From a phage, in sequence record PZ534511.1: a stretch of DNA of 64,000 nt. One strand, written 5' to 3'. Under the pieces are notes generated by a model. The model had not been told where the DNA came from and made no database searches. It worked only from the letters and a program-made list of their open reading frames with translations. The translations under genes and the position numbers were made by a program. This document shows positions 7,326-8,797 of the stretch, one piece after another; the first letter of the stretch is position 1; each line of letters starts with the position of its first letter.

Positions 7326-7571
7326 CTATTTTAAATTATTTTTATGATAGAATCCACCTGCCGCCCCCCGCCAGGTTAACCACCATTTTTTTTCGTACTC
7401 TTCTTTATGTTCCAACGCTCCCGCCATAACCTTTTCAACCAGGGCGATAGCTTCCGTATCATTAATCACTACATTTCCCAGGCGAGTAGCATTACCTTTC
7501 ATTTTTGTACCTCTTCTGTAGCTGTTTACTTTATAGTGCGGACCTGCCAGGCTGGCCCCGCCAGGTTGCAA
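7326..7571 (-). CDS. hypothetical small protein (probable start near 7502, MKGNATRLGN...)
   Basis: Track ORF; internal ATG preceded by AGAAGAGGTACAAAA RBS; the N-terminal extension overlaps GC-rich hairpin sequence. Confidence 0.4.
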   Translation of the reverse strand: MQPGGASLAGPHYKVNSYRRGTKMKGNATRLGNVVINDTEAIALVEKVMAGALEHKEEYEKKWWLTWRGAAGGFYHKNNLK

Positions 7572-7610
7572 CGGTTAGCGCATCAGGTTAGAAAAATTTT
7601 TTGAAAAGTG

Positions 7611-7639
7611 TTGACAGCGGCCCCGCCAGGCGGCATAAT
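7611..7639 (+). promoter_or_regulatory. plus-strand sigma70-like promoter (TTGACA-17-CATAAT)
   Basis: Near-consensus hexamers with 17 bp spacer; faces away from the minus-strand early genes into a noncoding region. Confidence 0.55.
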
Positions 7640-7645
7640 ATACCT

Positions 7646-7745
7646 ATCGAAAGGACGGCAGGCACCGGTGACGGGGGAGACAACCACCGGGGATGGGCGC
7701 TTCATAAAATGAGAACGGTTATCATTATCATTTAAAAATTTATGC
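7646..7745 (+). ncRNA. candidate small structured RNA, unit A (GC-rich stem-loop with GAGACAA loop motif, then AT-rich hairpin and U-rich tail)
   Basis: Lies just downstream of the 7611-7639 promoter; no ORF with RBS; shares GGGAGACAAYCACCGGG and GAGAAYNNTTATCATT motifs with unit B. Confidence 0.35.
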
Positions 7746-7789
7746 AAAAAATCCTTGCCTTCTTTGTCCTGTGTGATACTATAATAACA

Positions 7790-7880
7790 AGCCGGGGCAG
7801 CAGGGGCCGGGAGACAATCACCGGGCCTGCCCGTTATTCTGCAAACGAGAATAATTATCATTCAAAATTCTAAATAAGAA
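7790..7880 (+). ncRNA. candidate small structured RNA, unit B (paralogue of unit A)
   Basis: Preceded by TTGCCT..TATAAT promoter-like sequence (7755-7785, 19 bp spacer, weaker); stem GGGCAG..CTGCCC enclosing GGCCGGG/CCGGGCC with loop AGACAATCA. Confidence 0.3.
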
Positions 7881-7945
7881 TCCCTCGCATTTAATAAATT
7901 TAATTAGCATGCTAATTACCCTCCGTAACAATTTCCTATAAAACA

Positions 7946-8160
7946 GTGCCCCATAAAATATTCCCATATAGAAATTTTAAAAATCCATTTCTGAAAACGA
8001 AAAATAGATTTCGTCCCCAAAAATTTCAGGTCGAGATCCGGAACGATTTCCAGAAAATCCGATTCAGAAAACGAAAAACAGATCGAGTACTGAGAAATTT
8101 ATCGAGAAAAATTTTCAGAAAATCCAAGCCCTGGAATGAAAAGTAGATCGAGTACCTGGA
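7946..8160. repeat. AT-rich iteron-like direct repeats (GAAAACGAAAAAYAGAT, AGATCGAGTAC x2, CAGAAAATCC x2, AAATCCATTT)
   Basis: Short imperfect direct repeats read directly; the only large noncoding stretch in the window (about 7.87-8.46 kb). Confidence 0.5.
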
Positions 8161-8467
8161 AAGCTGCACCGCAACTTCAAGATAGTGGTTAGATTGTTAC
8201 CATAGAAGGTCAAGGGTAAGTGGAGGAAGTTCTAGTAGAGGGAGGTTAGCATGTGTGGGAAATCTATAATGGTGGTCTGGAATATGGTGCAAACGATAGG
8301 ATGAGCTATTCAGCTTGTCGCGCCTACTCTGAAAAATCCATTTTAGTTTTCGATCCATTTTCTGATTTTCTAAGAATTTTAAAATATCCAGCCCGGTGAA
8401 ATATCAAAAGGAGGAAATCCATTTTAGAAATCCCCCTTATACTTGATATGCCAGGAATTTTCAAGTA

Positions 8468-8797
8468 TCAGTTGTCTTTGTTTTTAGGTTTGTACATGCG
8501 CAGAGGTATGGTCTTTGTAACATTCCATTTCCTCAACCCTTCCCAGCTCCAGTTGTGGGCGTGGTATCCGGTTATGCATGCACTACTGGAGTGATCGTAA
8601 GCATAAGAGAACGCTAAGCGCACCAGGTGGGGCCAGTCCTTCCATGGTTGTGGACCGTAAGCTTTTCTCCAACACCGACACAAACTAAATGTCTCAAGAA
8701 TAGGAAGGATAACAAATCCATACACCGCCACCAGAATAGCCAGCGCAATGATTGTCAGGAATACATACCCTGCAGTTGAAATGATGATCTCTGTCAT
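8468..8797 (-). CDS. hypothetical membrane protein
   Basis: Track ORF 109 aa; N-terminal TM segment IIISTAGYVFLTIIALAILVAVYGFVILPIL. Confidence 0.5.
   Translation of the reverse strand: MTEIIISTAGYVFLTIIALAILVAVYGFVILPILETFSLCRCWRKAYGPQPWKDWPHLVRLAFSYAYDHSSSACITGYHAHNWSWEGLRKWNVTKTIPLRMYKPKNKDN

Follow-up and report, generated by a model that had tools for sequence, protein, structure and literature searches.

Replication origins of the iteron type, exemplified by ori of phage lambda and by those of plasmids P1, F, R6K and pSC101, carry direct repeats of 17–22 bp which are spaced by about two helical turns and bind a cognate initiator, and a Rep- or O-like initiator gene adjoins or contains the origin, which also has an AT-rich unwinding element and host-factor sites such as DnaA boxes beside it. 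The enterobacterial oriC is composed of conserved blocks split by variable sequence of constant length. Origins of phages T7 and T4 are promoter-dependent: the primary origin of T7, positioned about 15% from the left end of the genome, comprises promoters phi1.1A/B and an AT-rich region, and T4 oriF and oriG combine a middle promoter, an unwinding element and an R-loop primer. The injection stop signal (iss) region of phage T5 (Repeat Region 3) is a non-coding segment of about 1.2–1.7 kb with 66-bp direct repeats and palindromes; it is better conserved than the neighbouring open reading frames (ORFs), and HNH endonuclease insertions are found nearby (bioRxiv 10.1101/866236). Here we describe a non-coding repeat module in a stretch of phage DNA of 64,000 nucleotides (record PZ534511.1; hereafter the window), in which an earlier note had flagged positions 7946–8460 as an AT-rich, iteron-like repeat block and candidate replication origin or protein-binding array. 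The module is single-copy, cis-acting DNA found in conserved form across the Vequintavirinae; Phapecoctavirus has it too, but with different repeats. Tentatively, we interpret it as a site where a nucleoprotein complex assembles, with a transcription-activated replication origin as the most likely function.

The window belongs to a Vequintavirus (rV5-like) genome. A segment of 1.1 kb around the flagged block is 99.9% identical to the corresponding DNA of Escherichia phages naswa, magaca and EmilHeitz and 83–98% identical to that of more than 110 other Vequintavirus genomes; by synteny, window position 7860 corresponds to rV5 117,059, and the segment at 7.6–8.5 kb to about 116.8–117.7 kb of rV5. 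Genes flanking the module are all located on the minus strand. From the repeat array rightwards, the module is built of the following parts:

7955–8019, plus strand: repeat unit U1, with a degenerate core (ATAGATTTCGTCC here, ATCGATTTCGTCC in most relatives)
8029–8093, plus strand: repeat unit U2, ...AGAAAATCC..GAAAACGAAAAAC-AGATCGAGTAC, nearly invariant in 10–15 genomes
8094–8158, plus strand: repeat unit U3, AAAAATTTTC-AGAAAATCC...GAAAAGT-AGATCGAGTAC
7994–8010 and 8068–8084: direct repeat GAAAACGAAAAAYAGAT
8080–8090 and 8145–8155: direct repeat AGATCGAGTAC
8052–8061 and 8116–8125: direct repeat CAGAAAATCC
7981, 8334 and 8415: exact copies of AAATCCATTT
8159–8330: spacer of fixed length and fast-diverging sequence, G-rich and C-poor on the plus strand (GC skew +0.37)
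8331–8435, plus strand: right AT-rich block with AAATCCATTT (8334, 8415), ATCCATTTT (8353), AAATATC (8382, 8399) and an invariant AAGGAGG
8436–8471: AT-rich inverted repeat ATACTTGA / TCAAGTAT, bordering the stop codon of the minus-strand gene 8468–8797

The three direct units of about 65 nt (7955–8158) each close in (G)ATCGAGTAC, so that a core of 9–10 nt is shared by units of the same orientation, with 65–74 bp from core to core. The best 60-nt self-match comprised 42 of 60 positions; 300 dinucleotide-preserving shuffles gave 30.8 on average and 35 at most. Within the complete 138-kb rV5 genome, AAATCCATTT is present in exactly three copies, all at this locus and all on the plus strand, and two of the three copies of ATCGAGWAC are likewise found here. 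The A-tracts of the window array are phased at 10.5–11 bp (z 6.7 and 4.6), and the same period was detected in four of four genera (z 16.9 in SSE121, 4.3 in BIS47 and 3.9 in an unclassified contig). As A-tract phasing is a property of bent duplex DNA, the conserved blocks are taken to act as DNA.

Conservation within the genus follows these parts closely. It amounts to 96–99.6% at 7620–7920, 93–98% at 7980–8130 and mostly 98–100% at 8340–8430, and to only 77–83% at 8130–8340, a segment that varies more than the coding flanks do. When the three main allele types are compared, divergence comes to 0.03–0.07 in the array and 0–0.04 in the right block; the values for comparison are 0.02–0.04 at codon positions 1 and 2 and 0.12–0.16 at third positions. 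The repeat blocks are thus under purifying selection as strong as that on non-synonymous codon positions. Mosaic alleles exist as well, such as that of DrSchubert, which joins the left part of one type to the right part of another.

In four distant genomes that were examined, a conserved element just left of the flagged block (7807–7910 in the window) resides in a gap of about 0.9–1.4 kb between minus-strand genes, and these gaps hold at most a few small, probably spurious coding sequences. The order of parts is the same in Seunavirus SSE121, Mydovirus BIS47, Certrevirus CB7 and the unclassified contig (149 kb): tandem plus-strand σ70-type promoters with this conserved element, a promoter, the direct units, a spacer of about 175–180 bp, two to three copies of CCRTTT (not seen in CB7) and two to three copies of AAATATC. 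Three or four other genera have the CCRTTT and AAATATC repeats at an equivalent position. Each module has three units, or five or six in the case of CB7, and each unit closes in CGATCGAG(A/T)AC; the unit core of the unclassified contig reads CTCAAGTC or TTCGAGTAT. An alignment of twelve units from four genera over 65 nt is essentially gap-free, except for one truncated unit, and yields the consensus A5T6 .. AAAATCC .. GAAAA .. GATCGAGTAC. In four genera, 235–250 bp separate the last ATCGAG from the first AAATATC, and all motifs have one orientation. BLAST searches with the SSE121 array returned 69 further records in which lengths are kept within 0–2 nt at 73–81% identity; the hosts of the respective phages include Klebsiella, Salmonella, Cronobacter, Erwinia, Enterobacter, Proteus and E. 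coli. In Phapecoctavirus, different repeats are found at the same place. Selection on the blocks, homologous units in register, phased A-tracts and conserved spacing together support well the proposal that this is a putative protein-binding array. All four short direct repeats quoted in the earlier note are present and represent fragments of the three units of about 65 nt.

A few candidate explanations for the repeats were discarded. The units do not contain an acceptable pair of −35 and −10 elements on either strand by eye, nor was one found in the promoter scan, and hence they were rejected as σ70 promoters. An apparent second copy elsewhere in the genome ('two places per record') was traced to offset self-matches of the internal repeats. 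Pattern scans of IMG/VR and metagenomes added only a few sequences, and the scan with AAATCCATTT-N-AAATCCATTT returned unrelated repeats only. The sequence TCGATAAATT (8098–8107, minus strand, between U2 and U3) matches the reported high-affinity H-NS nucleation motif; this may be a chance match in AT-rich DNA.

The coding status of the region was assessed by counting the variable columns of a 15-genome alignment by codon position. The flanking genes displayed a strong 3-nt substitution periodicity (55:16:25 and 47:19:20). No 3-nt periodicity was detected for 7583–7861 (18:15:14), for the centre at 8160–8330 (44:36:46) or for a recurrent minus-strand ORF at 8197–8358 (29:39:34). The minus strand of 7583–7861 is annotated as a hypothetical protein in rV5 (ORF198), FFH2, EmilHeitz and other records. 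ORF198 lacks a Shine-Dalgarno sequence and is unlikely to be a gene; instead, it corresponds to two copies of a promoter plus conserved element. Annotations of small ORFs across the island are inconsistent between records, and their frames shift between alleles; open frames on the minus strand survive frameshifting indels because this strand is pyrimidine-rich. In view of absent periodicity, allele-shifting frames and inconsistent annotation, a protein-coding function of ORF198, ORF199 and others was rejected, and several annotated 'hypothetical proteins' in the island are spurious. A search for a tRNA or a known RNA was negative.

The longest stretch of the window without any ORF of at least 70 amino acids is 7862–8467 (606 bp; the runner-up measures 314 bp). 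The flagged block had been described previously as the only long non-coding stretch of the window. Its boundary was drawn too narrowly: since ORF198 lacks codon periodicity, the island reaches left to about 7572, and the true non-coding island spans approximately 7572–8471. The description as AT-rich applies to the two repeat blocks (31–35% G+C) and not to the centre (45%).

The spacer combines rigid length with rapid sequence change. Its length is 173–175 nt in all 26 sequences compared, and the segment 8100–8370 measures 271–272 nt in 25 of the 26, with indels that compensate each other (−2, +1, +1). Divergence of the spacer is 0.32–0.35 between the three main allele types and 0.46–0.51 to the most distant contig, that is, two to three times faster than at neighbouring third codon positions. 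As this rate exceeds the synonymous one, relaxed constraint alone is insufficient to account for it; possible causes are old alleles that recombination has preserved, diversifying selection, or hypermutation confined to an often single-stranded segment. Small conserved islands, such as AGATAG and GGTGCAAACGA, are present inside the spacer. GC skew of the plus strand is +0.27 to +0.49 in every Vequintavirus allele, and the module is the only local reversal to positive GC skew in the window. The spacer is thus an evolutionary puzzle, in that its sequence changes faster than neutral while length and G-richness are frozen.

One explanation of this pattern is that the spacer (about 8160–8330) specifies a structured non-coding RNA on the plus strand, with the AT-rich blocks serving as promoter and terminator or processing regions, and that length-keeping divergence reflects compensatory evolution or allele-specific pairing of the ColE1 RNA I / RNA II kind. 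Promoters are predicted upstream, the plus strand is rich in G and in G-U pairs, length is fixed, indels are compensated, and RNAalifold found more structure on the plus than on the minus strand. There is also a hairpin at 8186–8203 in which three pairs are changed on both sides, yet it is the sole convincing one. Only a weak consensus fold was obtained (−10 to −14 kcal/mol; −10 for 190 nt), paired cells amount to 95.2% compared to 92.9% in shuffled alignments, and pairs changed on both sides number five against 3.0 expected, a value reached by 32 of 500 shuffles. A helix scan gave no long covarying helix. Rfam returned nothing at gathering score for the window, chance-level matches only at E up to 10 for 7500–8600, and none in four related loci. 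Moreover, the conserved blocks consist of low-complexity direct repeats, and the helical phasing of their A-tracts is a feature of DNA. We therefore regard a structured RNA encoded by the spacer as unlikely; a small RNA element in the spacer beside DNA-acting blocks is possible. A CsrA-type sponge based on GGA motifs was rejected, as these motifs vary between alleles by inspection.

To the left of the array, the island contains predicted promoters, a duplicated conserved element and operator-like sites:

7611–7639, plus strand: predicted σ70-type early promoter, TTGACA-17-CATAAT (11/12), aimed into the module against the flanking genes
7655–7729, plus strand: conserved element, copy 1, GGGAGACAACCACC..., then the Fur-box-like 19-mer
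7711–7729, minus strand: Fur-box-like 19-mer GATAATGATAACCGTTCTC, 16/19 relative to the E. coli Fur consensus; a further site of this kind at 7847–7859
7755–7785, plus strand: second, predicted promoter-like site, rightward, TTGCCT ... TGaTACTAT / TATAAT, read by eye
7790–7866, plus strand: conserved element, copy 2, GGGAGACAATCACC ... ATTCTGCAAACGAGAATAATTATCATTC, with ATTCT/AGAAT half-sites and an operator-like look
7901–7918: perfect 18-nt palindrome TAATTAGCATGCTAATTA between conserved element and array, largely conserved in the genus alignment

The promoter at 7611–7639 has the AAAA-N3-TGTTGAC form of the early-promoter consensus of the family (PMC7344957). The site at 7755–7785 scored too low to be called by the promoter scan. 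Equivalent promoters number three in the prediction for SSE121, and the last of them (10/12, with TG) directly precedes the array. No protein-coding target was found downstream of the rightward promoters in Vequintavirus.

A stretch of about 90 nt in this region (7807–7910; GAGACAAnCACC...CTGCC...ATTCTGCAAAYGAGAAT...) recurs with 75–86% identity in at least five genera, always in DNA without annotation; among them are Phapecoctavirus, Mydovirus, Seunavirus and Certrevirus as well as a Pseudomonas phage. In rV5 a further copy is located at 108,191–108,230 in opposite orientation. The upstream conserved element gave no consensus RNA fold, so what is conserved is its primary sequence, which includes ATTCT/AGAAT half-sites and GAGAATnATTCTC palindromes. 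The Fur-box-like 19-mer at 7711–7729 is the sole match to the Fur consensus with three or fewer mismatches in 64 kb (expected 0.04), and one to three related palindromes, GAGAATnATT(A/C)TC, are present at the same place in other genera. These sites may be bound by Fur or may be operators of a phage regulator, and the 18-nt palindrome at 7901–7918 looks like a candidate operator.

Small plus-strand ORFs upstream in the module fall into two unrelated families, both absent from rV5. One encodes a helix-turn-helix (HTH)-like protein (LGWQGGTVHQVA..TGL) and is found inside the module as CB7_124 (862–1284) and in phiWec179 (1011–1277), with 49% identity between Certrevirus and Phapecoctavirus; its product may be a regulator of the module promoters. 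Seunavirus and Mydovirus have an unrelated plus-strand ORF of 60 amino acids in its place. In four other genera an extra non-coding element, AGAAGAGGAARCGCCACCCCACGGCG.AAAGGCGGGGCTAAC... followed by two copies of TTTGTAAAGA, is located behind a promoter of its own, about 150–250 nt upstream of the conserved element. The window lacks this extra element, and no Rfam family matched it.

Tandem promoters that oppose the direction of the genes, together with operator-like palindromes and Fur-box-like sites, might also indicate that the locus delimits transcription or serves as a regulatory hub, that it harbours an antisense or non-coding transcription unit and that it plays no role in replication. 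Rightward promoters would then collide head-on with leftward transcription, regulators would bind the palindromes and the units, and the long leftward gene array would be split into separately timed units. The positive GC skew of the plus strand fits with rightward transcription; equally, it yields a C-rich leftward RNA resembling a loading site of Rho. Accordingly, the minus-strand RNA of the spacer, which is untranslated, rich in C and poor in G, could be a Rho utilization (rut) site, and it is C-rich in every Vequintavirus allele with a sequence free to vary, as is typical of rut-like segments. The HTH-like small ORF in the module of CB7 and phiWec179 is also in line with a regulatory hub. 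However, a rut site or insulator requires neither a length fixed within 1 nt nor a distance of 235–250 bp preserved across genera, the C-rich bias is missing in other genera, and three helically phased units of about 65 bp in register across genera are left unexplained. The rightward promoters, moreover, are without a downstream protein-coding target in Vequintavirus. We consider such a boundary possible, if doubtful.

The inverted repeat at the right end of the island (8436–8471) is followed by a T-run on the plus strand. As judged from its sequence it may be a weak terminator for rightward transcripts, although it fell short of the thresholds of the terminator scan. The genes to the right of the module are unrelated between genera and include a membrane-like protein of 109 amino acids, an AP2-like endonuclease, NADAR and unknowns. 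Some genomes only, among them YP-6 (1526–2170) and SSE121 (2079–2666), encode at the edge of the module a protein of 195–214 amino acids with a weak AP2-domain match; the two are 29% identical (E 1e-21), one record annotates an HNH endonuclease, and the protein is likely a free-standing homing endonuclease. The view that the block divides early genes from an accessory cluster found no support, since similar small minus-strand ORFs with σ70-type promoters annotated in rV5 are found on both sides of it.

The position of the module relative to the physical ends of the genome was deduced from phage EdH4, whose 459-bp direct terminal repeat maps to rV5 104,973–105,431. A terminal redundancy of 458 bp was reported by Korf et al. 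in 2019 (PMC6563267). In the rV5 record, the EdH4 repeat falls inside a box of 2.6 kb labelled 'non-coding'; the physical ends of these phages thus sit between two convergent gene arms, and many of their GenBank records begin at arbitrary points. The distance from the module to the physical left end is about 12.1 kb, or about 9% of the genome.

Two short-repeat sets around a less conserved centre resemble the pacL/pacC/pacR layout of phage SPP1 and might suggest a packaging signal (pac or cos) or a terminal repeat, an alternative that had been mentioned for the block before. Since the physical ends at rV5 104,973–105,431 are about 12.1 kb away, the module is not a terminus or pac site; the terminase gene is also located elsewhere. 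The mapping of the EdH4 terminal repeat refutes this alternative, to which we attach next to no probability.

A location at about 9% from the left end is close to that of the T5 iss, at 7.9% (bioRxiv 10.1101/866236), and the module might accordingly be a DNA-entry pause site at the border of a first-entering DNA segment. As in T5, a large untranslated region with repeats of about 66 bp and palindromes is conserved above the level of neighbouring ORFs, and homing endonuclease genes are inserted nearby. In contrast to T5, whose region has paired DnaA boxes, eight in number, and is located at the end of the first-transferred DNA within a terminal repeat of about 10 kb, the module has no DnaA box and the terminal repeat is 459 bp; there is no sequence similarity between the two regions. 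No large A1-like gene is encoded between the module and the left edge of the window, and two-step injection of these phages was not found in the papers searched. A pause site is, in our estimation, distinctly improbable.

Related sequence on plasmids or E. coli chromosomes was sought as well, and the sole match turned out to be a mis-filed phage genome. CP057073.1, a 137.6-kb E. coli 'plasmid', is a Vequintavirus genome with more than 90% identity over the locus. The same applies to 16 or 17 public records (MG0656xx) named 'Campylobacter phage', which are Vequintavirus genomes also more than 90% identical over the locus. These records look mislabelled, or they derive from contaminating or carried phage.

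We infer protein binding, promoter activity and a role in replication from the sequence features of the module. A defined nucleoprotein complex is suggested because the site is single-copy, its blocks are selected, its units are phased, its spacing is rigid and its design is shared throughout the subfamily. Among the conceivable functions of such a complex, a transcription-activated origin was ranked first because of the oriC-like block pattern, the promoters without coding target and the T7-type replisome of the phage. In the proposed mechanism, a sequence-specific protein would bind the (G)ATCGAGWAC cores of the three phased units of about 65–74 bp on intrinsically bent DNA, and the fixed-length spacer of about 175 bp would set the geometry to the second AT-rich block with its AAATCCATTT and AAATATC repeats. 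Two to four tandem host-type early promoters would transcribe into the module, opposite to the surrounding genes, and this transcription would open or prime the region for a T7-like helicase-primase and family A polymerase of the phage. A DnaB-like helicase and a PIF1-like helicase are encoded 13–20 kb to the right of the module; a family A polymerase match in the same region is below the Pfam curated cut-off, and the rV5 annotation reads DNA polymerase.

Compared with the known origins, the module resembles oriC and iteron-type origins in its direct repeats, which share one orientation and lie on bent DNA rich in A-tracts, in the AT-rich DNA close by, in the GATC within the repeat core and in the single-copy nature of the site; conserved blocks parted by variable sequence of constant length are a likeness to oriC in particular. 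As to the term iteron-like, used in the earlier note, the direct repeats have one orientation and a shared core, but the units are composite and 65–74 bp apart, unlike classical iterons with 17–22 bp and a distance of about 22 bp. In addition, the module differs from iteron origins by the second repeat block about 175 bp away and by the lack of both DnaA boxes and an adjacent or overlapping initiator gene. With the T7 and T4 origins it shares predicted tandem promoters directed into an AT-rich, repeat-bearing non-coding segment, as would be expected for a transcription-primed origin, and a phage-encoded T7-type replisome. As in T7, the site is close to the left end of a linear genome that has terminal repeats. 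A G-rich non-template strand downstream, which might favour a persistent R-loop or primer, is seen in Vequintavirus and not in sister genera. Unlike these origins, the module has host σ70-type promoters opposed to the neighbouring genes and an elaborate repeat architecture which they lack.

Several observations speak against an origin. When the whole rV5 genome is rotated to its physical ends and gene orientation is corrected for, GC and AT skew follow transcription only; a skew-based origin search in the rV5 genome paper likewise did not place the origin (PMC3606486). The locus contains no DnaA box (TTWTNCACA), and comparison of the flanks across genera revealed no conserved initiator-like gene adjoining the module; a 'replication initiation protein' of rV5 is encoded about 52 kb away. 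Low-stability 40-mers are scattered, without a segment resembling a DNA unwinding element that is consistently placed across genera. The spacer skew in three other genera is +0.10, −0.17 and +0.18, which confines G-richness to Vequintavirus, and the unit spacing deviates from that of iterons as described above. Finally, the features would also fit another kind of nucleoprotein site, such as a transcription boundary, a regulatory hub or a DNA-entry pause site. These alternatives and an origin are not all mutually exclusive.

To our knowledge, the replication origin of rV5-like phages has never been mapped, and no description of this locus or its motifs was found in the literature searched. In a bolder version of the origin reading, to which we give little credence at present, the module would be the unmapped primary origin and of a new design, in which host-type early promoters, opposed to the genes, lead into three phased, composite 'mega-iterons' of about 65 bp, followed by a spacer of fixed length, with a sequence that changes faster than synonymous sites, that would act as an allele-specific primer or R-loop region or as an incompatibility determinant. 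By analogy with ColE1 RNA I / RNA II, a spacer of the latter type would keep replication control private among co-infecting relatives.

Phages of the rV5 type are among the most frequently isolated phages of E. coli, Salmonella and Klebsiella, and they are used in therapy cocktails. With its parts defined at the level of single bases and conserved across genera, the single-copy module is directly testable. If it is an origin, it would be a new example of origin architecture, and it would provide an engineering handle for these phages, in the form of replicons, conditional replication and the calibration of marker-frequency measurements.

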